From IMG/VR virus record IMGVR_UViG_2718218309_000001: a DNA stretch of 39,503 nucleotides; one strand, written 5' to 3'. The DNA comes from a virus (lineage: Duplodnaviria > Heunggongvirae > Uroviricota > Caudoviricetes). Positions 1 to 16,930 of the stretch are shown here, in pieces. The translations under genes were made by a program, and so were the position numbers. The notes below the pieces were generated by a model. The model had not been told where the DNA came from. It was given only the letters and a program-made list of their open reading frames with translations, and did not search any database. Numbering within the stretch: the stretch's first letter is position 1; the number at the start of each line of letters is the position of its first letter.

Positions 1-1749
1 ATGACAGTGGCAAATTATAATTCTCTTGTCCAGAAAACTTTCTGCGAAAATGCAATTCGTTCCGTTGTCATGATTGATGACGATTTTCTGACGTATTCTG
101 AATCAATCAGGGCGTTGAATAACGAAGTTGATTTAGACTACAACAAAATTGACTCATCTAAACGAGCCGCTACTCTTGAGAGCTTTTTTCAATCTAAAAA
201 TATGATTTGTGATGTTGACAATGGTTCTGTTAATTTCGATGTGGATCGGATTAGAAAATCAGATCTTATTATTGTAGATTATCATCTTGATAATAATGCA
301 CCTGATAAAACACTTAAACCATTACAAGATTTGAAAGACTCCGATCATTTAAATATGATTGTAATATATACTAGAGAGAATTTAGAAACGGTTTGGATGC
401 AGATATCATCGACTCTCAAAGGTGCTCTGGATATCAACAGCTTGATCATTGACTACGATAATGAAGATGTCCAAAGTTATTGGGAAGACGTTGTATTACC
501 GAACTTAAATGATAATGGTAATAAAGCTCTCACAAGAGATGAAACAATAGCCTATATTAAAGACAGTAAGCCTTGTAGAAGAATTAAAAGATTAATACAT
601 GATGATGCTGTGTTGGAGGATCAAAAGGATAAAAACTTCATTGCAAAAATGATTGCAGAATATGCTGTGTCTAGAAATGCAATTATTTCTAGCAACACAT
701 CTGGCAATGTCATTCGGGGTGATGAAAGCGGAGTAAAATGGATTCAATGTGGTAATATCTTTGTCTCCCTATTTCATAAGGTTCAAGATGATCATGAAAA
801 CGATGGAGATAGGATTTGGCAAACTCTCAATGATTCTCTCATTGAATGGAAACCATCTTATTATCAGTTAATAAAATCTGAAATTCAGAATGCAATCGAA
901 GCTGAGGCTTTATCTTTTGTAAATCATTTGGCTAACGATCATTACGGTCAAGCTGCGTGGTTAAATGAGATATTAAAATCAGACTCGCCTGATATTAGAT
1001 GTAGAAATATTGACTTTGTATTTGGTAATTTATCAGAAGAGCTTTATCAAAGACTTAAAAATAATAATACGCTGGATGAATTTATCAAAAGTGTTTTTGA
1101 TAGCTATTCAAATGAATACGCTAACAGCGGAGTTGCTGCATTGCTCCAATATTGCTCTTCAAAAATGGATCTGCCATCAAATAATGATACTTATCACGAA
1201 ATGTATCATGCTTTAAATATGAATTTGTCTTCAAAGAATTTTGAAGATGGTCATATTTCTACTGGCACTATTTTCTTTGATACAGAGTCGAACAAATGGT
1301 ATTTATGTGTATCTGCGGCATGTGATTTGGTTCCTACTCAGGGTAACGACCCTCACCATGTAAGATTAAGTCCGCACAGGCTCATTAAAGTTCTGGAGCT
1401 TTTTAACGCCAGTCAGAGTAAAGCATTGCCATTTGCTGAACATTCGAAATATATATATGTAATGCATAAAAATCAAAGAAAATATCTCTCTATTTTCGAA
1501 GGGGATAAAACGCTTCCTGTTGTTGATTATATGGTGGTGTTGAATCATGGAACAACAGTTGATGGCGAAGAAAAAAATATTATTTCTGCCGTGTTTTTAA
1601 GTAATATGGATGGCAACGTGCAAAATGTTCCTGTCCGACTCAAACTTAAATCTCAACTGAGAACTGGTTATGCAGAAAGATATCAGGCTATAGCGTCTCA
1701 GTATAGCTCAAGGATTGGTGTGGATTATGTATCAATGATGCTACCATAA
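1..1749 (+). CDS. Hypothetical 582-aa protein; N-terminal alpha/beta domain with acidic motifs (VVMIDDD, DLIIVDYHLD, MIVIYT, STLKG) reminiscent of receiver/PIN/Toprim-type folds; no P-loop seen
   Basis: Long uninterrupted ORF from ATG at position 1; AT-rich codon usage unlike the prophage core; alternating hydrophobic strands ending in Asp residues. Domain assignment is inference only. Confidence 0.6.
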   Translation: MTVANYNSLVQKTFCENAIRSVVMIDDDFLTYSESIRALNNEVDLDYNKIDSSKRAATLESFFQSKNMICDVDNGSVNFDVDRIRKSDLIIVDYHLDNNAPDKTLKPLQDLKDSDHLNMIVIYTRENLETVWMQISSTLKGALDINSLIIDYDNEDVQSYWEDVVLPNLNDNGNKALTRDETIAYIKDSKPCRRIKRLIHDDAVLEDQKDKNFIAKMIAEYAVSRNAIISSNTSGNVIRGDESGVKWIQCGNIFVSLFHKVQDDHENDGDRIWQTLNDSLIEWKPSYYQLIKSEIQNAIEAEALSFVNHLANDHYGQAAWLNEILKSDSPDIRCRNIDFVFGNLSEELYQRLKNNNTLDEFIKSVFDSYSNEYANSGVAALLQYCSSKMDLPSNNDTYHEMYHALNMNLSSKNFEDGHISTGTIFFDTESNKWYLCVSAACDLVPTQGNDPHHVRLSPHRLIKVLELFNASQSKALPFAEHSKYIYVMHKNQRKYLSIFEGDKTLPVVDYMVVLNHGTTVDGEEKNIISAVFLSNMDGNVQNVPVRLKLKSQLRTGYAERYQAIASQYSSRIGVDYVSMMLP

Positions 1750-1761
1750 TTATTATATTTT

Positions 1762-1789
1762 AGGCGTGGTGATTTTTTTCGCCATGCCT
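1762..1789. terminator. Hairpin (aggcgtgg / ccatgcct stem) followed by T-rich tract between convergent genes
   Basis: Inverted repeat 1762-1769 and 1782-1789 with about 12-nt loop, flanked by T runs; sits between the 3' ends of ORF 1-1749 (+) and ORF 1820-2236 (-). Confidence 0.3.
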
Positions 1790-1819
1790 ATTTTATATTT
1801 ATCATCACAATGATGTTGT

Positions 1820-2236
1820 TTATTTTTGTTTAAGTCTTCTAAGCTTCATGCATTCTAATGAGAATAATAATAGAGTTGTGCTGTATATAAAGCCAGAGTT
1901 AGTTAATAACTTTAAATTTAATGCTTCAGGATTTTCACTGAGAAAGTGAAAGGCATAAACTAAGTATACAGCTAAAGTAGCCGTTCCAATTGTTGGTCCA
2001 ATATCGCCTTGATCATGAGGTTCAAGGTTTACATTGAACTTGAAGATTAGCCATTCAAATCCCCAAGTAAAAAAAACAACTAATATCATGGCTGCGAATA
2101 ATTTCGCGATGTTATCTGCTGATGGATTCATCAGAACAGATTGTTTCTGAAAAAATTCACAAAGTGAGAGTCCGAAAAAAATAAAAAAAAGTGGTCTGGA
2201 ACTAAATTTTTCAAAAACTTTGAATAGGGTTTCCAT
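1820..2236 (-). CDS. Hypothetical small multi-pass membrane protein (138 aa, about 4 hydrophobic segments)
   Basis: ORF with several 18-22 aa hydrophobic stretches (FFIFFGLSL, AAMILVVFFTWGF, GTATLAVYLVYAF, IYSTTLLLFSL); immediately downstream of and co-directional with the P4-type integrase. Confidence 0.45.
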   Translation of the reverse strand: METLFKVFEKFSSRPLFFIFFGLSLCEFFQKQSVLMNPSADNIAKLFAAMILVVFFTWGFEWLIFKFNVNLEPHDQGDIGPTIGTATLAVYLVYAFHFLSENPEALNLKLLTNSGFIYSTTLLLFSLECMKLRRLKQK

Positions 2237-2274
2237 TTTCTTTACCTTCAGGATTATATTAGCTATTCTGATAC

Positions 2275-3546
2275 TTAGGCTACCAGAGCATTTGATCTTT
2301 GAGCTTGAACGTAATCACTCCACCATTGCATCAAACTCTGTCGCTCTATCAGATATTCTGCACGATTGTATGCTGCGATAATTTCATCTTTTTTCGAGTG
2401 GGCAAGCGCTGCCTCAAGAACTTCAGCTCTGAATTTACCAGACTCCTCTGCCGCTGTTCGTGCAATAGAACGCATACCGTGAGCTACAAGCTCGCCTCCG
2501 AACCCCATTCGGATGATAGCTGCGTTGGCTGTTTGTTCATGCATATGATTAAGAGGCGCTTTTATGCTGGGGAAAACCCATTCTCTATGCCCACTTATTG
2601 ATTTCATTAATTCAAGGATGCGCAAAGCTTCTTTACTCAAAGGAACTTTGTGAAGCTTTTTCATTTTCATGAAATCAGCAGGAATGTTCCAAATGCTGTT
2701 GGTTGTATCAATATCAGACCACCTTGCGCGAACGGCTTCACCCGGACGAACCCATGTCAACAATTGCCATTCAATTAGCATACGTGTTTCCAACCGGATT
2801 GACGCATTCGTCAAAGATTCCATAAACCTTGGCAATTCGCTTGGGGGAAGGGCAGGCATATTTTGCTTTTTTGGTTTACTGAATCTTTGACCAAGGTTGT
2901 CAGCCGGGTTGAACTCAATAAGTTCTTCAGTAGCTGCCCACCGGAAGATTTCATTCAGACGTGAAATGATACGGCGTAGAGTTTCCAATACGCCTCGTTG
3001 CTCAATAGGATCAAGGTGTTGTTTTAAGAGCTTAGGTCGGATCTCATTGATAGGGACATTACCCAGACCGGGAAAGACATTTCTCTCTAAGCTGCGCCAG
3101 ATGTCTGCTGCATGGTCTTGTGAGATACCTGATGTCTTTACCTTCTCATCTAACCATTTCCGCGCTACGGCTTGGAGAGTGTGCTCAGTAGCACTCTTTA
3201 ATGCCTTCGCCTTATCGTTGTTATGGATTTGGGGATCAACACCATTTGCCAGAAAGGAGAGATATTCATCACGTAAGGCTCTGGCTCTTGCAAGGGTAAG
3301 GTGAGGATATGTCCCAAGGCTCATTTTGGTTCTTTTCTTGCTCACTGGTACTGCATACCTGAAATACCAATTTTTCTTGCCTCCTTTCGCCAAAGGAGCG
3401 ATTCGTAGAATCAGACCATCACCGTCAAACAAGTTGATTTCTTTATCGGCTGGCTTGGTGCTTTTGATTTCAGTGTCAGTGAGCTTCTTAGCGATTTTTG
3501 CCATTTTGGGACCCTCGGTTTTTGGACCCTTCTTAGTGGGTCCCAT
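2275..3546 (-). CDS. int: P4-family tyrosine integrase (CP4-57 IntA-like); true start probably the internal Met (MAKIAKKLTDTEIK, near 3504)
   Basis: N-terminal TDTEIKSTKP...DGDGL...WYFRY motif block typical of P4-type integrases; C-terminal catalytic region with R...H..R..Y-type residues (HGMRS, AHS...YNRAEY); adjacent to att copy. Confidence 0.9.
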   Translation of the reverse strand: MGPTKKGPKTEGPKMAKIAKKLTDTEIKSTKPADKEINLFDGDGLILRIAPLAKGGKKNWYFRYAVPVSKKRTKMSLGTYPHLTLARARALRDEYLSFLANGVDPQIHNNDKAKALKSATEHTLQAVARKWLDEKVKTSGISQDHAADIWRSLERNVFPGLGNVPINEIRPKLLKQHLDPIEQRGVLETLRRIISRLNEIFRWAATEELIEFNPADNLGQRFSKPKKQNMPALPPSELPRFMESLTNASIRLETRMLIEWQLLTWVRPGEAVRARWSDIDTTNSIWNIPADFMKMKKLHKVPLSKEALRILELMKSISGHREWVFPSIKAPLNHMHEQTANAAIIRMGFGGELVAHGMRSIARTAAEESGKFRAEVLEAALAHSKKDEIIAAYNRAEYLIERQSLMQWWSDYVQAQRSNALVA

Positions 3547-3669
3547 TCAGGGTGCCATAACTCGTAGTTCTCAGCAATTCTCACTGGACGACAATAGACG
3601 TAAAAAAGCCCGCAGAGCTTGTGCTGTGTGGGCTTAGTAGACTTCATTGAACTTCAAACAACTAAAAAG

Positions 3670-3714
3670 TGGTGGAGCTGGCGGGAGTTGAACCCGCGTC
3701 CGAAATTCCTACAT
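3670..3714. repeat. 45-bp direct repeat of the ssrA 3' end (att core copy; junction between prophage and P4-like island)
   Basis: tggtggagctggcgggagttgaacccgcgtccgaaattcctacat is identical to 39102-39146 (the 3' end of ssrA); sequences diverge immediately outside. Confidence 0.9.
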
Positions 3715-3827
3715 ACCATTTTTATCATAGTAAAAACAGTAATTTACGTTTAAAAACAATGTATTAGTATTATTTTGTATTTGTCCGTTTTACGCATTTT
3801 TAATGCTCTGTCGCCAAATTGCCGCCA

Positions 3828-5021
3828 TCACTTCTTGTCTTCGATAGAACCGTATTCAAGAAGGTTGTCCATACACTTCTCTAACCTATAGAAATCTGTC
3901 AAAGGATAGAGATTGACAATGTTGTCATCAAAACTTTGCATACCTGATAAACGTTCTTTCCTTCTTAAGAATCTTGAGGCAGACCTAACACCATCATCCT
4001 CACTTGGTTCACAGGAATAATCTAGAGTTTTTAGTACCTGCCATGAAACGGGGGGAGTAAGCTTGAACATTTTTACTAGCTTAGGACAGAAATCTTTTGT
4101 TATGGTTTGCTGATATGTAACTTTAGGTGGAAGAACAACGTTAATAGATTTATCACCATGGTTTGTTTTAATCATTCTTGTCGATCTGTATGCAATTCCG
4201 ACAATGTTTGATTTATTTCTACGACTAATCCATTGCATTAATAAATTTGGGATTATATATTCCTGAGTGAAAGATGTGCTGCCGTTAATCTTTGCAAAAC
4301 TACAAGCGTAAATTAGTGGCATTAAACAAATGTAAGACATCTTTGTGATGTATGACATTTTGTCATTATCAATCTTACCATAGAAACGTGAGTAGAGGAT
4401 TTCCGAAGTGAAATCTAATATTTTGGAATTTTCTTCACTGGATATAAAAGAAGATATATATAACTTATCAAAATCAGGTTTATCCATTTCAAGCCAACAT
4501 ACATATAGGGATGAGCCTAAATATAAACAGGGTAGACCTGCAACCGAGTATCTTTGGGCATTTACCAAGTGCCTTTTAGAGAATGGTATATGAAAGATTT
4601 CATTTCTATTTTTTACTGCTGTATCAGATTTTCTAACCCTGAATAAAGGTCTTGAAGAATTGCAAATATTCTCTAAGGGGATTGATATTTTCTGGATGTA
4701 GTTAGCTGTGAATCGATCAGAAAATGTTCTGTCGAAAGTATCATATGAGGACTTGATATCACCTGATAAAAAATATTCCAAAGAGCTTACAACGCCAAAG
4801 TATATTCTTGTTATTCTATCAAGTTTAGAACTCAATCTACGAGATAATTCATTGTCATTATCTTCTATGTAGTCATTTAAAGTATTAAAGTAAATTTCAC
4901 ATTTATTTTTAAAATCATTAATAATGTCGGTCTTAACAGTGAAAGGGAGTTTTAAATCTCCCGTCTTTATAAGGCTTTCAAATAAAAAATTAAAATCATC
5001 ATGTATATTTTCGGTTTCCAT
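3828..5021 (-). CDS. RES-domain-like protein (397 aa), candidate NAD+-targeting toxin/effector
   Basis: Motif block PLFRVR...QRYSVAGLPCLYLGSSLYVCWLE (aa about 125-179) matches the RES signature (Arg ... G.P.LYL.SS ... E) known from RES-Xre toxins; very AT-rich; second gene of an operon downstream of int. Confidence 0.55.
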   Translation of the reverse strand: METENIHDDFNFLFESLIKTGDLKLPFTVKTDIINDFKNKCEIYFNTLNDYIEDNDNELSRRLSSKLDRITRIYFGVVSSLEYFLSGDIKSSYDTFDRTFSDRFTANYIQKISIPLENICNSSRPLFRVRKSDTAVKNRNEIFHIPFSKRHLVNAQRYSVAGLPCLYLGSSLYVCWLEMDKPDFDKLYISSFISSEENSKILDFTSEILYSRFYGKIDNDKMSYITKMSYICLMPLIYACSFAKINGSTSFTQEYIIPNLLMQWISRRNKSNIVGIAYRSTRMIKTNHGDKSINVVLPPKVTYQQTITKDFCPKLVKMFKLTPPVSWQVLKTLDYSCEPSEDDGVRSASRFLRRKERLSGMQSFDDNIVNLYPLTDFYRLEKCMDNLLEYGSIEDKK

Positions 5022-5075
5022 TGTTATTATCCTTTTGAGTAATTTAATGAATATAACGGGTTTTTCGTGACAGCA

Positions 5076-6203
5076 TCATTCCAAATGATCTGCCGCCGCT
5101 TTGCCGCCAAGGATTTTCATATAAGGAGGCTTAGCATAAACCTCCTTGGTCTGCTGGAAAGTGGTTTTGGAGAATCTTCTTTCTTCTGATTGTAAATATT
5201 TTAGCAGACGTTGATATTTGTTTTCTAATATTTGACTATTCCCAGCCAGATCGTAAATATCGCAGGTTATGTTATAAAGCCAATAAACTACGGCTTTGAT
5301 TTCAGGCTCTGAGAAATAGGTTGTGTTAAATACATATTCATTATTATGATTGTAAATGTAGGAGTGTTTCCTTTGTATAGTGTTAACCTTAAGTAGCTTC
5401 ATAAGGTTGATAATTTTAAGGTCAATAGAAATTAAAGAAATTATCTCTGACTTCAAATCACCCTTTTTGATACCAATAATTTCTTTATCAAGTTCATTCC
5501 AGGCATTTATGATTTTTTGCGTGAATTTTGGGGAAGGGCTATAAATTGCACCAGTATTTTGTGAAGATTGAAATAAATTATTATAAAGCTTATGAGGAAA
5601 TACAATTTTCACTTCGTAAGTATTTACTTTTTCACTTGATTCTATATAAGCATGGCTAGCCACTTCAGCAGCCACATGCCTTGTTCGATCAGTCTGCGTG
5701 GGGATATATTCAAGAACCAAAGTAGGGAATGAACTAATCGTTTCGATAAATAGTTTTAAATGAGAGTAATAAGCGTCTGCATTGTTTTTAACTTTAGCTG
5801 ATTGTATCTGTGATTCAGTTTGAATGGTTCTATGAATATTATTTACTATTGAAGCCAGTGGCACTGATGAAGCTAATAATAGCAACGGAAGTTTACTAAT
5901 ATTAAGAAAATTTGCAAACCCGTCGGTTGTCAGTTGTAAACTATGATCTCTCCAAACCCAGCAACCGAATAAAATAAAATAGTAAAATGGTAATAAGATA
6001 GAAGCTATAAACAAAGGTTGTTTGAATAAATTATTGTCATTTAACTCAAACCACCCGTAAAAATAAAACAGTCCTATTGTTATAAATAATGAGGTTATTG
6101 CCACCGTTAAGAACATTACCTCAAAACCATAATATATTGTAAAAGTATTTGCAACTATGGATAGTAAGAGCAAAAAAGTTAAAGTGATAATTTTATTTTT
6201 CAT
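5076..6203 (-). CDS. Hypothetical membrane protein (375 aa): about 4 N-terminal TM helices plus about 280-aa soluble C-terminal domain
   Basis: Hydrophobic segments in the first 90 aa; start ATG (6203-6201) overlaps the int stop codon (TGA 6202-6200), i.e. ATGA translational coupling with int; AT-rich. Confidence 0.6.
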   Translation of the reverse strand: MKNKIITLTFLLLLSIVANTFTIYYGFEVMFLTVAITSLFITIGLFYFYGWFELNDNNLFKQPLFIASILLPFYYFILFGCWVWRDHSLQLTTDGFANFLNISKLPLLLLASSVPLASIVNNIHRTIQTESQIQSAKVKNNADAYYSHLKLFIETISSFPTLVLEYIPTQTDRTRHVAAEVASHAYIESSEKVNTYEVKIVFPHKLYNNLFQSSQNTGAIYSPSPKFTQKIINAWNELDKEIIGIKKGDLKSEIISLISIDLKIINLMKLLKVNTIQRKHSYIYNHNNEYVFNTTYFSEPEIKAVVYWLYNITCDIYDLAGNSQILENKYQRLLKYLQSEERRFSKTTFQQTKEVYAKPPYMKILGGKAAADHLE

Positions 6204-7219
6204 AAGTTAATCATATTCAACGGGTTTTTGGTAACTGCATCTTCTAAATGATCTGGGGAGAAATGTGCATAGATCATTGTCATCTTAATATCGGCATGCC
6301 CAAGAATTTCTTTAAGAACAAGTATATTACCGCCATTCATCATGAAATAGCTTGCGAAGGTATGCCGCAGCACGTGGGTACATTGGCCCTCTGGCAAGTC
6401 GATACCAGCTCGTTTCACTGCGCGCTCAAAAGCTTTTCTGCATGGCGTGAATAGTTTCCCTCTGTTTTTGGGGAGTTCATCATACAGCTCCTGAGATATC
6501 GGTATGGTACGGTTTTTCTTGCCTTTAGTTTTGGTATAGGTGATCCGGTATTTAGTTAACTGATGGCCTTGAAGGTTTTCTGCTTCACTCCATCGCGCGC
6601 CGGTAGCCAGGCATATTTTTGCAATCATCAATAGGCTGGAGCTATGAGAATCTGCGCAAGCATCAAGCAGGCGTTTAATTTCTTCCGTGGTCAGGAACGC
6701 CAGCTCACCTTCTGCGATTTTAAATGTTGGCAAACCGGCGAGTGGATTGGGTGCTGACCAATGGCCCAACTTTTTCAGTGTGCCAAACACGGATGATAGG
6801 TTGCGTTGTTCAAGGTTTACCGTGCGAGGCTTAACTGGCGACATAAGCACGCCATCTTCATTTCGCACCTCACCTTTTAGCCGTGCTTCGCGGTATTTCG
6901 TAAAGTCGCCAGCGGTTAACTCTGAGGCAACAGGATCACCCAGGCCGTTACAAATAATGTTGAGTTTTGCCATCAGGCGTTTGGGGTCAGCAAGTGTCTG
7001 CCCGTAGAGTGAATGCCATTGCTCAATCACTTCTGACAAACGCCGCCGATCTTCTTTCTCACCCAACCACGGTTTTTTGTTTACTTCGTCCATGGTGTGA
7101 TTTTCGAATGCTATGGCCTCACCTTTCGTCGCAAATTGTTTGCGCACACGCTTGCCGTCGCGCCCGTTAGGGTAGCACTCACATAACCATTTACCGTTCG
7201 GCTGTTTTCTGATGGTCAT
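6200..7219 (-). CDS. int: P2/186-type tyrosine integrase
   Basis: 339-aa protein with N-terminal MTIRKQPNGKWLCE... and C-terminal catalytic residues (R...HVLRHTFAS...YAHF), as in P2 Int; located next to the repressor gene as in P2/186. Confidence 0.9.
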   Translation of the reverse strand: MTIRKQPNGKWLCECYPNGRDGKRVRKQFATKGEAIAFENHTMDEVNKKPWLGEKEDRRRLSEVIEQWHSLYGQTLADPKRLMAKLNIICNGLGDPVASELTAGDFTKYREARLKGEVRNEDGVLMSPVKPRTVNLEQRNLSSVFGTLKKLGHWSAPNPLAGLPTFKIAEGELAFLTTEEIKRLLDACADSHSSSLLMIAKICLATGARWSEAENLQGHQLTKYRITYTKTKGKKNRTIPISQELYDELPKNRGKLFTPCRKAFERAVKRAGIDLPEGQCTHVLRHTFASYFMMNGGNILVLKEILGHADIKMTMIYAHFSPDHLEDAVTKNPLNMINL

Positions 7220-7222
7220 AAG

Positions 7223-7873
7223 TTAGAGGCTCTTGATTACTTTGGCTGCTCGTCCTACAACTTCCACATCATCTACAGAGCATTCAAATGAAGTGTCATC
7301 TTGGTGAACTACTATTTTGTTTCCGGGTATACGTGCAATTTTGACGATGTTTTTCATACCGTCGATGTCTATGAGCCAAATTCCGTTACTAAGCTGTTTT
7401 GCTGATGTGTCAACGATGTAATTGCCATCGCTAGCTTTGACGTACAAACAGTATTCGGCTTTTCCGGGTATCAAACTCTGATCAAGGAAAACATCTTCCA
7501 GCTCTTCGAGCGTTCCGTTCTCAATGGTTGCCTGCCGTACTGATGGGATAACAATCTTTGAAAGGGGGCGAACTGTAGGTGAACTCTCGTTTTTGAACTT
7601 ATTTTTTTCTTCTGTTTGAGGATACATTTCCCCTTGGCCCGTTGTCAGCCAAAGCAGAGAAATACCTGTTTCAAGGGCACATTGAATAACCCAGTCAGCG
7701 GGAAAGCTATCACGTAACATCCTGTTTGCCATGGTACTTTTTGATGCTTCGAGATGTTCAACTAACGCTATTTGAGTGTTGAAACCATAGGCGGTCATCA
7801 GCCTTTTGATGGTCTCCCTTCCTCCCGTATTTGCACCTGTATTGATCTTCAAGATGAACTCTCCATTTGACAA
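7223..7873 (-). CDS. cI: Phage 186 CI-like immunity repressor
   Basis: Resembles 186 CI (AYGF..., CALETG..LWLTTGQGE, C-terminal VDDVEVVGR); divergent from apl across an operator-containing intergenic region. Start codon uncertain (track start is a non-ATG codon). Confidence 0.8.
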   Translation of the reverse strand: MSNGEFILKINTGANTGGRETIKRLMTAYGFNTQIALVEHLEASKSTMANRMLRDSFPADWVIQCALETGISLLWLTTGQGEMYPQTEEKNKFKNESSPTVRPLSKIVIPSVRQATIENGTLEELEDVFLDQSLIPGKAEYCLYVKASDGNYIVDTSAKQLSNGIWLIDIDGMKNIVKIARIPGNKIVVHQDDTSFECSVDDVEVVGRAAKVIKSL

Positions 7874-10051: not shown

Positions 10052-10905
10052 GCACCATCCTGAAATGGGCGGGAAATAAAACCGCAATTATGTCCGAACT
10101 GAAAAAACACCTTCCTGCTGGCCCGCGACTGGTTGAACCTTTCGCGGGTTCCTGTGCTGTGATGATGGCGACGGATTATCCAAGCTATCTGGTTGCGGAT
10201 ATTAATCCTGATTTAATCAACCTCTATAAAAAGGTTGCCGCTGATTGTGAATCGTTTATATCTCGCGCCAGAGTTTTATTTAAGGAAGCAAACAGGGAGG
10301 TGGCTTATTACAACATAAGGCAGGAGTTTAATTACTCAACTGAAATTACTGATTTCATGAAAGCGGTATATTTCCTGTATCTCAATCGTCACGGTTACCG
10401 TGGTTTATGTCGCTATAACAAGAGCGGGCATTTCAACATTCCGTACGGTAATTATAAAAATCCGTATTTCCCTGAAAAAGAAATTCGCGCATTTGCAGAG
10501 AAAGCCCAGCGGGCAACGTTTATCTGCGCAAGCTTTGATGAAACGCTGGCGATGCTGCAGGTGGGGGATGTGGTGTATTGCGATCCGCCGTATGACGGTA
10601 CGTTTTCCGGCTATCACACTGATGGTTTCACTGAAGATGACCAGTATCACCTAGCATCCGTTCTTGAACATCGGTCATCAGAAGGACATCCGGTCATTGT
10701 TTCTAACAGTGACACATCCCTGATCCGTTCGCTATATCGCAATTTTACTCACCACTACATCAAGGCAAAACGCAGCATCGGTGTGGCAGCTGGTGAGAGT
10801 AAATCTGCAACAGAAATCATCGCTGTTTCCGGGCCGCGCTGCTGGGTGGGATTTGATCCTTCGCGTGGCGTGGATAGTTCTGCCGTGTACGGAGTGCGTG
10901 CATGA
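10048..10905 (+). CDS. dam: DNA adenine methyltransferase (Dam family, GATC-type)
   Basis: N-terminal SAM-binding block (KWAGNK...LVEPFAGS) and catalytic DPPY motif ([10 protein letters not shown]); ATG at 10048; stop overlaps the A start (ATGA). Confidence 0.9.
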
Positions 10906-13316
10906 GCCATGCTGATATGAACAACTGCAGCGGCTTTAACGAGGCCGCCGCAGCATTCTCATGGAACAGCCCGAAAAAGGCCATTAACCCTTATCTGGAC
11001 CCGGCGGAAGTTGCGCCGGTTTCTGCGCTTTCAAACCTGATCACTCTGTACGCTGCTGATAACGAGCAGGAACAGCTGCGCCGTGAGGCGCTGAGTGATC
11101 AGGTCTGGGAGCGTTATTTCTTTAATGAATCCCGTGATCCTGTCCAGCGCGAAATGGAACAGGATAAGCTCATTAGTCGGGCAAAGCTGGCGCATGAGCA
11201 GCAGCGTTTTAATCCGGATATGGTCATTCTGGCGGACGTCAACGCCCAGCCTTCCCATATCAGCAAGCCGCTGATGCAACGTATTGAATACTTCAGCAGC
11301 CTGGGCAGGCCAAAGGCTTATTCCCGCTATTTGCGTGAGACGATTAAGCCATGTCTGGAACGACTGGAGCATGTACGCGACAGTCAGCTATCCACTTCTT
11401 TTCGCTTTATGGCAAGCCATGAAGGGCTGGACAGTCTGCTGATCCTGCCTGAAATGAGTCAGGATCAGGTGAAACGCCTGTCCACCCTGGTAGCTGCGCA
11501 TATGAGCATGTGCCTTGATGCCGCTTGTGGCGATTTGTATGCCACCGATGACGTTAAGCCAGAAGAAATCCGCAAGACATGGGAAAAGGTGGCGGCGGAA
11601 ACCCTGCGACTGGATGTCATACCGCCTGCGTTTGAGCAACTCCGCCGGAAAAGAAACCGCCGTAAACCCGTGCCCTATGAACTCATTCCGGGGTCGCTGG
11701 CGCGTATGCTGTGCGCCGACTGGTGGTATCGGAAATTGTGGAAGATGCGTTGCGAATGGCGGGAAGAGCAGTTGCGTGCTGTTTGCCTGGTCAGCAAAAA
11801 AGCATCTCCCTATGTCAGCTATGAAGCCGTGATGCATAAACGTGAGCAGCGCCGTAAGTCGCTGGAGTTTTTCCGTTCTCATGAACTGGTGAACGAAGAC
11901 GGCGACACGCTGGACATGGAGGATGTGGTAAACGCCAGCAGCAGCAACCCTGCGCATCGCCGCAATGAGATGATGGCCTGTGTTAAAGGTCTGGAGCTTA
12001 TCGCGGAAATGCGCGGTGACTGCGCCGTTTTCTACACCATCACCTGTCCGTCACGTTTCCATTCCACGCTAAATAACGGCAGGCCCAACCCGACCTGGAC
12101 AAATGCGACGGTAAGACAAAGCAGTGATTATCTGGTCGGCATGTTTGCTGCATTTCGTAAGGCGATGCACAAAGCCGGATTGCGCTGGTATGGCGTGCGG
12201 GTGGCTGAGCCGCATCATGACGGTACAGTTCACTGGCATCTGTTGTGTTTTATGCGCAAAAAAGATCGCCGCACCATTACTGCTTTGTTGCGTAAGTTTG
12301 CCATTCGTGAAGACCGCGAGGAGCTGGGTAATAACACGGGACCACGCTTTAAGTCTGAGCTGATAAACCCGCGCAAAGGTACGCCAACAAGCTACATCGC
12401 GAAATACATCAGTAAGAACATTGACGGGCGTGGTCTGGCTGGCGAGATCAGCAAGGAAACGGGTAAATCCCTGCGTGATAACGCTGAATACGTTAATGCC
12501 TGGGCGTCTCTGCATCGTGTTCAGCAATTCCGCTTCTTTGGCATTCCGGGGCGTCAGGCTTACCGTGAACTGCGATTGCTGGCTGGTCAGGCGGCAAGGC
12601 AACAGGGGGACAAAAAAGCAGGTGCGCCGGTACTGGATAACCCGCGCCTTGATGCAATCCTGGCTGCTGCTGATGCTGGTTGTTTTGCCACCTACATCAT
12701 GAAGCAGGGCGGCGTACTGGTTCCCCGCAAATATCACCTCATCAGAACTGCTTATGAAATCAACGAAGAACCGACCGCATATGGCGATCACGGTATTCGT
12801 ATTTATGGCATCTGGTCACCCATTGCAGAGGGCAAGATCTGCACTCATGCGGTGAAGTGGAAAATGGTTCGTAAGGCCGTTGACGTTCAGGAGGCGGCAG
12901 CCGACCAGGGCGCTTGCGCCCCTTGGACTCGTGGCAATAACTGTCCCCTTGCTGAAAATTTGAACCAACAGGAGAAAGATAAATCAGCAGATGGGGATAC
13001 CAGAACTGATATTACCTGCATGGATGACAAGGAATTGCACGATTACCTGCACAATATGAGCAAAAAAGAGCGCCGGGAACTGGCAGCAAGATTACGCCTG
13101 GTTAAACCGAAACGGCGTAAAGACTACAAACAGCGAATTACAGAGCATCAGCGTCAGCAGCTCGTCTATGAACTGAAGTCCAGAGGATTTGATGGCAGCG
13201 AGAAAGAGGTCGATTTGCTCCTTCGCGGTGGCAGTATTCCGTCAGGAGCAGGCCTGCGTATCTTCTATCGGAACCAGCGTTTGCAGGAAGATGATAAGTG
13301 GCGGAACCTGTATTAA
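10902..13316 (+). CDS. A: Replication initiation protein A (rolling-circle nickase, P2 gpA / 186 RepA)
   Basis: 804-aa protein with the HxH...Y(I)AKYISK active-site region (TVHWHLLCF ... [11 protein letters not shown]) characteristic of P2 gpA. Confidence 0.9.
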
Positions 13317-13408
13317 TTACGCGGGTTAACAATTCGTGCTCTTAATAATACCAGGCATATCAGGCTGATGAACGTAAAAAAACGTTTTACATCAGTAAGA
13401 TTATTATA

Positions 13409-13428
13409 TACTGTAAATATAAACAGTG
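13409..13428. promoter_or_regulatory. LexA box (SOS operator) TACTGTAAATATAAACAGTG
   Basis: Matches CTGT-N8-ACAG with AT-rich spacer; lies about 45 bp upstream of ORF 13470 and the DinI-like gene. Confidence 0.55.
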
Positions 13429-13469
13429 TTTATGCATACAGTGTTGCTTGTGGTGTCATAGGAGGAAAG

Positions 13470-13658
13470 ATGCAGGACTATTTTTTGGAGTCTTTGAAGC
13501 TCCAGCGCATTGATTTTTTTCTTAAGCTTGTAGCGGCTAGTGAGTGTAGTGATGAAGAGAAGGGGCTGGCTCTGCAGTGGGTTTCTGAATTGACTGATGA
13601 ACTCATGGCAAAAATCAGAAGCCACGAATACAACCGCTCAATGGATGTCATCAGCTGA
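13470..13658 (+). CDS. Hypothetical small protein (62 aa), first gene of putative SOS-controlled operon
   Basis: GGAGGA RBS 4-9 nt upstream of ATG 13470; preceded by LexA box. Confidence 0.5.
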   Translation: MQDYFLESLKLQRIDFFLKLVAASECSDEEKGLALQWVSELTDELMAKIRSHEYNRSMDVIS

Positions 13659-13668
13659 GGTGACTTTT

Positions 13669-13902
13669 ATGCGCATTGAAATAATGATCGATAAAGAGCA
13701 GAAGATTAGCCAGTCTACCCTGGACGCTCTGGAGTCCGAGCTTTACCGCAACCTGCAACCCATCTATCCCAAGACAGCTATCCGCATCCGTAAAGGGTCG
13801 GCAAACGGCGTTGAGCTGAGTGGCTTAAAGCTTGATGAAGACAAAAAGCGGGTGATGGAAATTATGCAGCAGGTTTGGGAAGACGACAGCTGGCTGCACT
13901 AA
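13669..13902 (+). CDS. dinI: DinI-family protein (77 aa)
   Basis: MRIEIMIDKEQ...LDALESEL...IMQQVWEDDSWL follows the DinI pattern (MRIEV...ETWE..DW); GAGGTG RBS. Confidence 0.8.
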   Translation: MRIEIMIDKEQKISQSTLDALESELYRNLQPIYPKTAIRIRKGSANGVELSGLKLDEDKKRVMEIMQQVWEDDSWLH

Positions 13903-13975: not shown

Positions 13976-14236
13976 ATGGGTAAAAAAGACAGTAATCACC
14001 AGATTATTTATCGGGGCCAGGTGCTGGAACGGTTTACCCCTGGCGGCTGGGTCTTCTTTCAACGCCCAAAGGAGTGTGGCGGAGGTTTTTGGTTGGGCCG
14101 CACCTATGAAGACTGCTTCTGGCTTGAGCTGGAATTCCCCGTTTCGCTATATGACGGCCTGGAGTTTTTGATGGAAGTCACCAGGGTAGAGCAGAGAAGT
14201 GATGAGGTTGACGCGAATTATTCCCTGTTTGATTAA
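13976..14236 (+). CDS. Hypothetical protein (86 aa), possible Tum-like or other accessory protein
   Basis: ORF following the DinI-like gene; assignment is positional only. Confidence 0.45.
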   Translation: MGKKDSNHQIIYRGQVLERFTPGGWVFFQRPKECGGGFWLGRTYEDCFWLELEFPVSLYDGLEFLMEVTRVEQRSDEVDANYSLFD

Positions 14237-14284: not shown

Positions 14285-14896
14285 ATGGATTTAGTCTTTA
14301 AAATTCTGGCTTCGTTGGGTGGGGTGTCTTTTGTTGCATCTGGCATATTTGTTTGGATCGGGAAAGTTTATTTAGAAAGATATAAGTCGCGGCTAAACAA
14401 AGATATTGCTGAATTTCAATCACAACTGAGTGCAACTAATGAAAGAATAAAGGCTAAGTTAGACAATTCTGTTTATGTAACGAAAGCGTATTTTGATAAG
14501 GAGTTATCAGCATATAGTCTCATTTGGAATTCGATGTTTGAAACCAGAGAAAGCGTGCTTAAGCTGAGGCCTGCGCTGGATCATTTTGACCCCAACGAAC
14601 CATTTGAAGAGAGAAAATTTAGAAGGTTGAAAGTTTTTTTCGATGCATTTAATACTTTTGTTACAAGTGTTGAGTCTAACAAACCGTTCATCTCACCAGA
14701 GGTTTATATAATCTTGGACCGTTTCCGGAAGGAATGCTTTTCAGAGTCAATATCGTTTCAGCATGGCGATCCAGAATTTGACTGGCAAAATTATTGGAAA
14801 GAGGCAGAGTTGAATCGTACAACCATCACCAAGCTTTTTGATGAGACGTGTGATGCAATTCGAGACAGGATGCACACATTAACTGTGGTTACGTAG
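14285..14896 (+). CDS. Hypothetical membrane-anchored protein (203 aa; N-terminal TM helix plus helical cytoplasmic domain); hotspot cargo at the tin/old position
   Basis: N-terminal hydrophobic segment ILASLGGVSFVASGIFVWIG; AT-rich; lies between gene A and cos where P2 carries the anti-phage genes tin and old. Confidence 0.6.
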   Translation: MDLVFKILASLGGVSFVASGIFVWIGKVYLERYKSRLNKDIAEFQSQLSATNERIKAKLDNSVYVTKAYFDKELSAYSLIWNSMFETRESVLKLRPALDHFDPNEPFEERKFRRLKVFFDAFNTFVTSVESNKPFISPEVYIILDRFRKECFSESISFQHGDPEFDWQNYWKEAELNRTTITKLFDETCDAIRDRMHTLTVVT

Positions 14897-14987
14897 TTTT
14901 CCAAAAAGTCTCGATGCCCGCTTTGGCGATTGTGCATGTCTATGCCGCATGAATCCGCATGATCGTTTGAGGATCGTTTTAGCTGAG

Positions 14988-15011
14988 GCCCGCTAGGAAT
15001 GGCGGGCTTTT
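14988..15011 (+). terminator. Rho-independent terminator (GCCCGC-loop-GCGGGC followed by TTTT)
   Basis: Perfect 6-bp GC stem with 8-nt loop and T tract downstream of ORF 14285-14896. Confidence 0.45.
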
Positions 15012-15056
15012 GCTTATGTCATGCAGACGCATGAAAACCACTACATAAAGCGGGCA

Positions 15057-15075
15057 GGCGTGGCGGGGATACGAG
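15057..15075. other. cos site (cohesive-end sequence) of the P2/186-type prophage
   Basis: GGCGTGGCGGGGATACGAG closely matches the 19-nt cohesive ends of 186 (GGCGTGGCGGGGAAAGCAT) and P2 (GGCGAGGCGGGGAAAGCAC), recalled from memory. Confidence 0.55.
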
Positions 15076-15185
15076 CGCGCGCTCATGGTTGAATTAATGA
15101 AATTATGGTGTTAAATAGGCTAGCTTTTTAAGTCGTGAATATTCAATTTTTCAACTCATTTTTTTCATAGGGAGGAGTAATTGAC

Positions 15186-15884
15186 ATGGTTATGTTAGTG
15201 GATGACTGTCCACGATGTGGATCACAAAAAATAGCGTTTGATGTTAATGGGCTGAATTGCACTAGGGTTTACAATGCATTGGGCGGGGGTAAAACATACG
15301 AGTACGAGGTCTATTGTGTTTGCCGAGAGTGTCATAAAACGACAATGTTTCTTTGCAGACCTTTAACGAAAAATAAAACTTTAGATGGCTATAATTGGGA
15401 AAGTGGAATATTCGGCTTAAAGGAAGTTGCAGAGGTTGTTAGGCCTATATCACCGGCAGACTTAGCAGTAGAGGAGCCACCAGAGTTCTTACCTGAGCAT
15501 ATCAATAGTACATATGAGGAAGGGGCGAAATGTTTGGCTATAGGTTGTTATAATGCAGCAGCAACCATGTTTAGGCTTTGCCTTGATTATGCCACAAAAG
15601 GACTTCTTCCTGATGGGGAGCAAGGGCCTGCGCAAAAAATAAGGAGAAGCCTAGGGTTAAGAATGGAGTGGTTATTTGATAATCATCTACTGCCTGAAGC
15701 TTTAAGGGAACTAGCTGAATGCGTTAAAGATGACGGAAATGATGGAGCGCATGAAGGTATTTTGGATAAAGCTGCTGCTGAGGATCTTGAAGATTTTACC
15801 TATCTTTTTTTAGAACGGCTTTACACTGAACCTCAACGCCTTATCGAAGCCAAGACAAGGCGTGAACAAAGAAGAAACAAATAA
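15186..15884 (+). CDS. Hypothetical Zn-ribbon protein (232 aa): N-terminal CPRCG...CRECH plus C-terminal helical domain; cargo between cos and Q
   Basis: Cx2C-N30-Cx2C at the N-terminus; GGAGGAG RBS; AT-rich; stop is only 8 bp from the Q stop. Confidence 0.65.
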   Translation: MVMLVDDCPRCGSQKIAFDVNGLNCTRVYNALGGGKTYEYEVYCVCRECHKTTMFLCRPLTKNKTLDGYNWESGIFGLKEVAEVVRPISPADLAVEEPPEFLPEHINSTYEEGAKCLAIGCYNAAATMFRLCLDYATKGLLPDGEQGPAQKIRRSLGLRMEWLFDNHLLPEALRELAECVKDDGNDGAHEGILDKAAAEDLEDFTYLFLERLYTEPQRLIEAKTRREQRRNK

Positions 15885-15892
15885 GTTCGGAA

Positions 15893-16930
15893 TTATTCTT
15901 CTGAAAGAATATAGGGCGTAAATTTAATCACTTCTTCGCCCAGCCAGTCGTTCAGCTCTTGTAGCCTTTTTTGCAAGGGCGTTAATTCATTACGTACAAA
16001 TACGCGACTGGCCTTCTCCACATCCCCAAACCCCCCGACATTATTAGGCATTATCCCCATCATTTGTGGCGGCACACGATGCGCCGCCATCATGTCGTCC
16101 CGGCTCACGTTCTTGATATTCAGGAACTCATCCTTCGCCGCCACTTCTGACAACGGGATAATCTGAAGCCCGTCCTTTTTACCGTTAGGCGAGTACATAA
16201 ACAGGTTACGGAAGTTACCAGGACCTTTGGCGCTTTTCATCGCATTGCGGAGGTTGTTCACATCCTCCTGGTTCTGTGCTGCATCGGTCATGTACATGAT
16301 GAAGCCTGCATGACTGCCGTTAATGTAATACTTGCGGCGGAACAGCGTGGCGGACTCGTTGAGCAGAGCTGACGGAATGGCAGAAAGATAACCAGGCAGG
16401 CCGTAGATCTCCTGGTTGATGTCCGGTTCCATCAGATGAAAAATGTTGCCTTTCGTGAACTGATACGGCTGCGTAGTCATGCCGTATTGCACAAACCAGT
16501 AGGTATCAAGGTCTAACCCGCGTCGGGTGTATTTTGCCAGTGCAGGCTCAAGGGCGATAACTTCACCGAAGCGGTTCGTGCGTTTCTCCAGGTAGGCGTT
16601 ACCAAAAACCAGATAGTCCTGTACAAAACGCGAAAAAGCCTGCTGGCTGAGCAGCGGGTGAGGGATGTAGGTGCTGGTCAGAATGTTGCACTTCACTGCA
16701 ATCGGTGAGCTGTGATGCACGGCGGCGCGGAAGGTTCGCGCCAGTCCGTCGAAACTCACAGGCGGCTCGTACCAACGATCCATCTGTACGCATTCCACAT
16801 AGTCCAGCAGTTCGCGGCGGTCCAGAACAGGAACGGGATCACCGAAGCTGAATGCTTCGGCTGAAGTCTGGCTTTTATGCTGGATCTGTTTCGTCGACGC
16901 AGCGCGGTTCTTCTTACTCTTTCCCATCAA
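15893..16930 (-). CDS. Q: Portal protein (P2 gpQ)
   Basis: 345-aa protein, size and position (leftward, next to cos, before P) match P2 Q. Confidence 0.95.
   Translation of the reverse strand: MMGKSKKNRAASTKQIQHKSQTSAEAFSFGDPVPVLDRRELLDYVECVQMDRWYEPPVSFDGLARTFRAAVHHSSPIAVKCNILTSTYIPHPLLSQQAFSRFVQDYLVFGNAYLEKRTNRFGEVIALEPALAKYTRRGLDLDTYWFVQYGMTTQPYQFTKGNIFHLMEPDINQEIYGLPGYLSAIPSALLNESATLFRRKYYINGSHAGFIMYMTDAAQNQEDVNNLRNAMKSAKGPGNFRNLFMYSPNGKKDGLQIIPLSEVAAKDEFLNIKNVSRDDMMAAHRVPPQMMGIMPNNVGGFGDVEKASRVFVRNELTPLQKRLQELNDWLGEEVIKFTPYILSEE

Follow-up and report, generated by a model that had tools for sequence, protein, structure and literature searches.

A split tumA/tumB SOS operon as the predicted DNA-damage induction switch of a Fels-2/186-like prophage

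The window analysed here is a stretch of 39,503 nucleotides that, judged on its sequence, is a Fels-2/186-like P2-family prophage. Directly 3′ of its replication gene lies a small LexA-box cassette, which very probably represents the split (tumA/tumB) version of the SOS operon of P2-family prophages of the 186/Fels-2 type and acts as the switch for induction by DNA damage. The anatomy of the cassette, its conservation, the homology of its products to Tum and DinI, and the identity of one of them to the product of a genetically tested gene are all observed directly. The system itself is already known: the cassette is the "split tum" form of the p95-tum SOS operon of phage 186, the names tumA and tumB come from PSP3, and the key protein is identical to a genetically characterised one. 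The additions made here are modest, and consist of a double operator, a recurrent gene denoted ORF86, an optional dinI, and the invariance of TumA. With this reading, the gene deciding when the prophage leaves lysogeny is identified, and the practical value is a better annotation; in public records tumA is a "hypothetical protein" (phrog_698, unknown function; hypothetical in the RefSeq matches sampled).

As for the mechanism, in undamaged cells LexA would occupy an operator, just 3′ of gene A, that overlaps the -10 of a p95-like promoter and the point where transcription probably starts, with two LexA dimers probably sitting on the overlapping boxes at 13409-13443. Upon DNA damage, activated RecA would lead to the self-cleavage of LexA, the promoter would fire, and TumA, TumB and, probably by read-through, ORF86 would be produced. 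TumA would then bind the 186-type CI repressor, which is devoid of an autocleavage domain, and the lytic promoter would be freed for lytic growth; TumB would most likely tune the activity of the RecA filament and be dispensable for induction.

The cassette, its surroundings and its operator

The closest relative is Escherichia phage Cartapus, a Fels-2-like prophage of the P2 family carried by E. coli LF82 (PMC9928086), with 99.1% identity to the region over 1 kb and 99% to the cassette. This cassette is present in 1,125 of 5,426 complete E. coli genomes, and some E. coli genomes carry two or three copies of it. In the window, it follows gene A (10902-13316, + strand; Phage_GPA, E 8.5e-128) directly and on the same strand, and it lies before the cos/Q end, with the portal gene Q at 15893-16930 (− strand) and the integrase gene at 6200-7219 (− strand). 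The same order is found in 186, Fels-2, PSP3, DuoHS and 33 genome loci; the latter come from a scan of one genome per species and are from Escherichia, Citrobacter, Enterobacter, Klebsiella, Raoultella, Pantoea, Tatumella, Erwinia, Serratia and others. With the phage records included, the sample comprises about 40 loci, and the conservation of operator and promoter was evaluated on 38 loci. At the same site after gene A, the 186 record has the promoter p95 (TTCACA-N18-TACTGT), a LexA box beginning with that -10, and tum, together with nested shorter DinI-like products that are annotated as modulating SOS induction; t95a and orf97 come next.

Regarding the operator, the first SOS (LexA) box, TACTGTAAATATAAACAGTG, is located at 13409-13428 (found on the + strand) and agrees with the LexA consensus, TACTGTATATATATACAGTA, at 17 of 20 positions; 20-mers with three mismatches or fewer were found in none of 100 dinucleotide-preserving shuffles. 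It is this 20-mer match, and not the 8-base core, that gives the box its significance: CTGT-N8-ACAG occurs once within the 39.5-kb window, and the bare core is weak when taken alone, with at least one occurrence in 35 of 100 shuffles and an expectation of 0.47 per window. This expectation, along with the AT-rich composition of the cassette region (GC ~0.40), is what can be said for regarding the palindrome as an AT-rich stretch that arose by chance or as part of an ordinary promoter, in an operon that LexA does not control. Such a reading is extremely improbable: the shuffles never reached the level of the 20-mer match, the half-sites are kept in all 38 loci amid variable flanks, and lexA(Ind-) blocks the induction of DuoHS (PMC12055606), whose box 1 is identical to that of the window and whose 35-nt operator is identical at 32 of 35 positions.

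Control by LexA is also in line with the pattern of conservation. Box 1 was seen in every one of the 38 related loci, which cover many Enterobacterales, and the fraction of loci that agree with the window is 0.99 for its left half-site and 0.93 for its right one, versus 0.54 for the 17-nt spacer of the promoter and 0.39 for the leader; the conservation is thus footprint-like, with the half-sites kept and the flanks varying.

The first-pass annotation had reported a near-consensus LexA box ahead of a small ORF and a DinI-family gene, downstream of gene A and in the position equivalent to that of the LexA-repressed tum promoter of 186; all these points are borne out by the data given above and by those on the two genes given below. 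A second box, CAGTGTTTATGCATACAGTG, with the form GTG-N10-CAG and 14 of 20 consensus positions, goes beyond what had been observed then. It is at 13424-13443, begins 15 nt past the start of box 1 and overlaps it by 5 nt, with the CAGTG junction in common; this dual overlapping layout is of the colicin type, and the second box is found at the identical offset in 26 of the 38 loci. In ColE1 cea, likewise, the boxes start 15 nt apart, with CTGT-N8-(A/C)CAG followed by GTG-N10-CAG. The 35-mer of ColE1, TGCTGTATATAAAACCAGTGGTTATATGTACAGTA, is identical to the operator of the window at 26 of 35 positions, and to that of Fels-2 at 31 of 35; it is found just 5′ of an ORF starting with METAVAYYKDG, which we take to be the N-terminus of colicin E1. 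However, the boxes of ColE1 are downstream of the -10, whereas box 1 of the window includes it, and both promoter and product differ. In colicin genes, overlapping boxes of this kind are occupied by two LexA dimers, which keeps expression from starting at the wrong time (PMC2994835), and by analogy the operator at 13409-13443 probably accommodates two dimers as well; the colicin-like double operator suggests tight repression with a late release, so that induction would need sustained damage.

The promoter has the layout TTTACA-N17-TACTGT, and the LexA box overlaps its -10 in the same register as in 186. The -35 hexamer, TTTACA, is at 13386-13391 (+ strand) and matches the window in 0.94 of the 38 loci, while the -10, TACTGT, at 13409-13414 (+ strand; match in 0.99 of the loci), is at the same time the left half of box 1. 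A generic sigma-70 scan did not call this promoter on the + strand, its -10 having just three of the six consensus bases. Immediately 5′ of the -35, an A-tract at 13376-13382 (+ strand), with a match to the window in 0.80 of the 38 loci, is possibly a UP-like element. The ribosome-binding site of tumA, AGGAGG, is at 13460-13465 (+ strand), 4 nt ahead of the ATG, and matches in 0.88 of the loci; the window sequence of the region is attattataTACTGTAAATATAAACAGTGtttatgcatacagtg...AGGAGGaaagATG. On the − strand, a sigma-70-like match (13403-13432, TAAACA-18-TATAAT, 10/12) falls within the palindromic operator and faces gene A, and is probably incidental to the AT-rich palindrome.

TumA and the CI repressor

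The first gene after the operator, tumA (13470-13658, + strand), encodes a 62-aa predicted antirepressor, which is a homologue of the N-terminal half of 186 Tum. The protein is 100% identical to ECHS_RS04495 of E. coli HS, namely the "tum" of prophage DuoHS, a 189-bp gene that is followed by a DinI-like gene, ECHS_RS04500, in that locus too, and it is 97% identical to STM2728 of Fels-2. The antirepressor role of this type of TumA comes from the genetics of DuoHS: the in-frame deletion of "tum" abolishes mitomycin C lysis and virion foci/formation, with the host SOS reporter still responsive in the mutant, and lexA(Ind-) likewise abolishes mitomycin C lysis and virion foci (PMC12055606). The published primers for the deletion, NHR24/NHR28, join ...GTGGTGTCATAGGAGGAAAGATG to TGAGGTGACTTTTATGCGCATTG (PMC12055606); each of these sequences occurs in the window exactly and only once, at 13450-13472 and 13656-13678, and their positions are those of the start and stop of the 62-aa ORF. 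The dependence on LexA and the requirement of tumA for induction in the window prophage would follow by analogy with DuoHS, Fels-2 and 186. DuoHS and the window have in common the order A - box - tumA - 10 nt - dinI and a gene A that is 98% identical; in contrast, their Apl-like proteins are unrelated by tblastn, the cargo 3′ of dinI is different, and the identity is 86% for the DinI-like proteins and 36% for CI.

Regarding the relationship with 186, BLASTP detected no similarity between TumA and 186 Tum, and tblastn none between the TumA of the window and that of PSP3; the homology is based on the comparison of profiles. The TumA profile, built from 28 diverse relatives, was aligned by hhalign with a profile of the 186 Tum N-half family (PSP3 TumA being one of its members), with a probability of 96.6% and an E of 6e-10; residues 1-44 pair with residues 1-44 with no gaps, the alignment has 48 ungapped columns, and a conserved Cys is in the loop. 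The AF2 model of TumA is a two-helix hairpin (pLDDT 88), for which Foldseek returned generic helical hairpins only, all with E > 0.8; searches of TumA against Pfam, PADLOC and the PDB sequences gave no match. A phmmer search against 1.84 billion representatives returned 67 proteins, mostly shorter than 105 aa, and a fused Tum-like form was not evident among them, four longer ones (two matching near the C-terminal end) being outside this assessment. The relatives of the 186 Tum N-half are, in their majority, short stand-alone proteins, and from the sequences collected the split state of tum would be the common one.

As for the presumed target of TumA, a 186-type CI repressor is encoded at 7223-7873 (− strand), where it adjoins int and is divergent from an Apl-like ORF and the CII (Phage_CP76) gene. 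The protein matches Phage_CI_repr and Phage_CI_C in Pfam and none of the peptidase S24 families that would denote autocleavage of the lambda type; hence, the cognate repressor is a 186-type CI without an autocleavage domain. A CI of this type is not cleaved by RecA, and therefore an antirepressor is needed for SOS induction. In 186, Tum binds CI and prevents it from binding the operator, according to the account in PMC3121763 of the biochemistry of Shearwin 1998; for the pair of the window, we infer a direct binding between TumA and CI.

The two partners diverge to a different extent. Across the loci, TumA identity ranges from 71 to 100%, and that of the neighbouring CI from 29 to 85%; the CI of the window (216 aa) is 36% identical to the CI of DuoHS (189 aa) and 61% identical to that of Fels-2, and identical TumA proteins are paired with CI repressors whose N-terminal domains are 55-57% identical and whose C-terminal domains are 33-56% identical. 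TumA would be expected to co-vary with CI if it were a specific antirepressor, and Mantel tests showed no significant co-variation (for the N-terminal domain, r 0.20 and p ~0.06; for the C-terminal domain, r 0.04). The invariant columns of CI are concentrated within the helix-turn-helix domain, where they form the block S.STMANR..R..FP.DW...C..(E/D)TG..L.WL, and a few more are C-terminal; the most conserved block, SKSTMANR..RDSFPA.WVIQCALETG, has ~76% identity between the window and DuoHS. A near-invariant TumA facing CI repressors that have diverged to 29-36% suggests a promiscuous antirepressor. We propose, tentatively, that the Fels-2-type TumA might be a broad-specificity antirepressor, recognising an invariant surface of the 186-type CI, most likely the conserved block of the N-terminal domain, and that one SOS-derepressed prophage could in this way induce co-resident heteroimmune P2-family prophages in trans. 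If this holds true, the specificity of induction would be independent of that of immunity in the Fels-2-type group, and cross-induction would be predicted between heteroimmune prophages of polylysogenic strains.

The same divergence bears on whether the cassette, SOS-regulated as it may be, is the induction switch in this prophage: TumA may not inactivate this CI, or inducibility may be weak or nil, and the cassette would then be mainly an SOS modulator with an accessory module (DinI, ORF86). DuoHS, whose CI is so distant from that of the window, is the sole prophage with an identical TumA that was tested, TumA and CI do not co-vary significantly, and Cartapus, with its 99% identical cassette, is missing from the LF82 prophages for which ciprofloxacin induction was reported, its production being spontaneous and at a low level (PMC9928086). 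This alternative is nonetheless unlikely. Early lysis by prophage Gally could mask the induction of Cartapus in that experiment, and the most conserved CI block is largely maintained between the window and DuoHS, with the identity given above. Fels-2, with its closely related TumA and a CI at an intermediate distance, causes lethality of lexA-null cells, as PMC3121763 reports in citing Bunny 2002. In addition, the codon differences of tumA across the loci (638 synonymous vs 337 nonsynonymous) indicate a gene that appears to be under purifying selection, kept beside an intact SOS operator across all the CI variants.

Two individual loci should be mentioned. In Pantoea stewartii ATCC 8199 (L031), a Fels-2-type TumA, 84% identical to that of the window, and a dual SOS box are found with a 186-type CI, whose identity to 186 CI is 60% overall and 71% for the N-terminal domain; this is a natural mismatch between the type of antirepressor and the type of repressor. 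Siccibacter turicensis (L040, 10001-10179 and upstream) is the one locus with a frameshifted tumA, and its SOS box is decayed too, with seven mismatches, so that operator and tumA appear to have degraded together.

The DinI-like gene and comparison with known systems

The second gene, tumB or dinI-like (13669-13902, + strand), encodes a protein of 77 aa that matches DinI of Pfam (PF06183) with an E of 2e-24 and a score of 86.1 bits, the gathering threshold being 24.2; the match is full-length, residues 14-76 corresponding to profile positions 1-63 of 63. The TGA of tumA (13656-13658) and the ATG of dinI (13669) are separated by a 10-nt gap, which is the split tumA/tumB arrangement. The protein is 43% identical to residues 71-145, the C-terminal half, of 186 Tum, and 92% identical to PSP3 TumB. 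A weak hairpin with TTTTAT after it, at 13647-13664 (+ strand; three GC pairs), spans the tumA stop and the ribosome-binding site of dinI, and could modulate the tumA:dinI expression ratio or translational coupling.

A homologue of dinI was not detected by tblastn within 10 kb in about 12 of the 40 related loci, among which are the ESSI-2-like phages, where a TumA with 49% identity is preceded by a single box and has no dinI partner; dinI is thus an optional member of the cassette. This finding is relevant to the question of which of the two products is the effector of induction. In 186, the two halves form one polypeptide, and nested DinI-like products carry the annotation mentioned above; moreover, in DuoHS the translational coupling to dinI, whose start is 10 nt on, might be affected when the upstream ORF is deleted. 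It could accordingly be supposed that the DinI-like protein is the effector and the small ORF a leader or accessory peptide, but this is very improbable: the loci that lack a detected dinI homologue keep tumA and the SOS box, the DuoHS deletion leaves the ribosome-binding site and the start and stop codons in place (PMC12055606), the antirepressor activity of PSP3 is reported for the upstream gene (Lemire 2011, PMC3121763), and non-polar deletions of dinI have no effect on the induction of the Gifsy phages (PMC3121763). The first-pass annotation had proposed either an induction switch or an SOS modulator, and both terms find a place, with the small ORF as the switch, being identical to DuoHS tum and a homologue of the Tum N-half, and the DinI gene as the likely modulator, given its similarity to the C-terminal half of 186 Tum.

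Compared with 186, the cassette has the same position after gene A, a LexA box over the TACTGT -10, homologous antirepressor and DinI modules, and a CI with the same architecture, without the autocleavage domain. However, 186 fuses both modules into a single Tum of 146 aa, has a single SOS box, and has a strong partial terminator, t95a, after tum, while none is found in the window; the N-halves are similar at the profile level only.

Fels-2 and PSP3 are closer in that a stop codon separates the antirepressor half from the DinI half of tum (Lemire 2011, PMC3121763). Fels-2 has the same dual SOS operator, and a dinI-type gene, STM2726.1, comes after STM2728; unlike the window, it has STM2726 and STM2723.1 downstream instead of ORF86, ORF203 and the DUF4145 gene. 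In Salmonella, STM2727, within the predicted operon STM2726-2728, was induced 5.5- to 14.8-fold by the mutagen MX, and it is listed with the LexA regulon in Table 4 of that work (PMC2225428). As for PSP3, its tumA is annotated as "similar to 5' end 186 tum; UV induction of prophage" and its tumB as DinI-like; unlike the TumA of the window, PSP3 TumA belongs to the 186-type N-half family.

Outside the P2 family, the dinI - antirepressor (gfoA/gftA) - irsA operons of the Gifsy phages also pair a LexA-repressed antirepressor with a DinI homologue, and their repressor is uncleaved; here, the order is reversed, with dinI first, the antirepressor and repressor families are others, and the phages are lambdoid (PMC3121763).

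ORF86 and the flanking regions

ORF86 (13976-14236, + strand), of 86 aa, is the likely third gene of the operon and recurs in related loci. Its membership of the same unit, suggested at first pass, is partly supported: in 8 of about 40 loci, one of them without dinI, a homologue with the same orientation comes directly after tumA/dinI, and no terminator-like hairpin is predicted between dinI and ORF86. Nothing marks ORF86 as the antirepressor. Its GC content (~0.50) is that of the phage core, and it falls in phrog_2100, annotated with function unknown; it has no match in Pfam or PADLOC, and its AF2 model is confident (pLDDT 83), with nothing below an E of 0.2 by Foldseek against the PDB. The UniRef label of a homologue, P0359, pointed to a DUF2829/Tad2-like protein; this assignment was not borne out, since a search of the 37 members of the family gave no DUF2829 match at E ≤ 1, and Foldseek gave none either. 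ORF86 is probably expressed by read-through from the SOS promoter.

Farther right, ORF203 (14285-14896, + strand) has a GC content of ~0.38 and falls in phrog_26391 (unknown function); neither Pfam nor PADLOC gives a match for it, and of the loci examined only Cartapus shares it. No convincing terminator was found between dinI and ORF203, and SOS read-through into ORF203 is possible because there is no strong terminator between it and ORF86. The gene that follows, at 15186-15884 (+ strand), encodes a DUF4145 protein (Pfam E 4.6e-7), which PADLOC matches to the anti-phage candidate PD-T7-4 (E 1.1e-6, 26 bits); it is located immediately to the right of cos, within the variable stretch that separates tum from the portal gene Q, and homologues occupy the same spot in three other loci. 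ORF203 and the DUF4145 gene read as low-GC cargo flanking cos. The cos site was placed in the gap at 14897-15185 by homology to the ends of the linear Cartapus record, and therefore the SOS operon and the DUF4145 gene would occupy opposite ends of the virion genome.

On the other side of the window, two ORFs without a Pfam match are found left of int, one at 5076-6203 (− strand), overlapping the int stop by 4 nt, and the other at 3828-5021 (− strand). A P4-type integrase (2275-3546, − strand) and a Response_reg_2-domain protein (1-1749, + strand) are encoded farther left, and the prophage may border on another integrative element or island in 1-6203.
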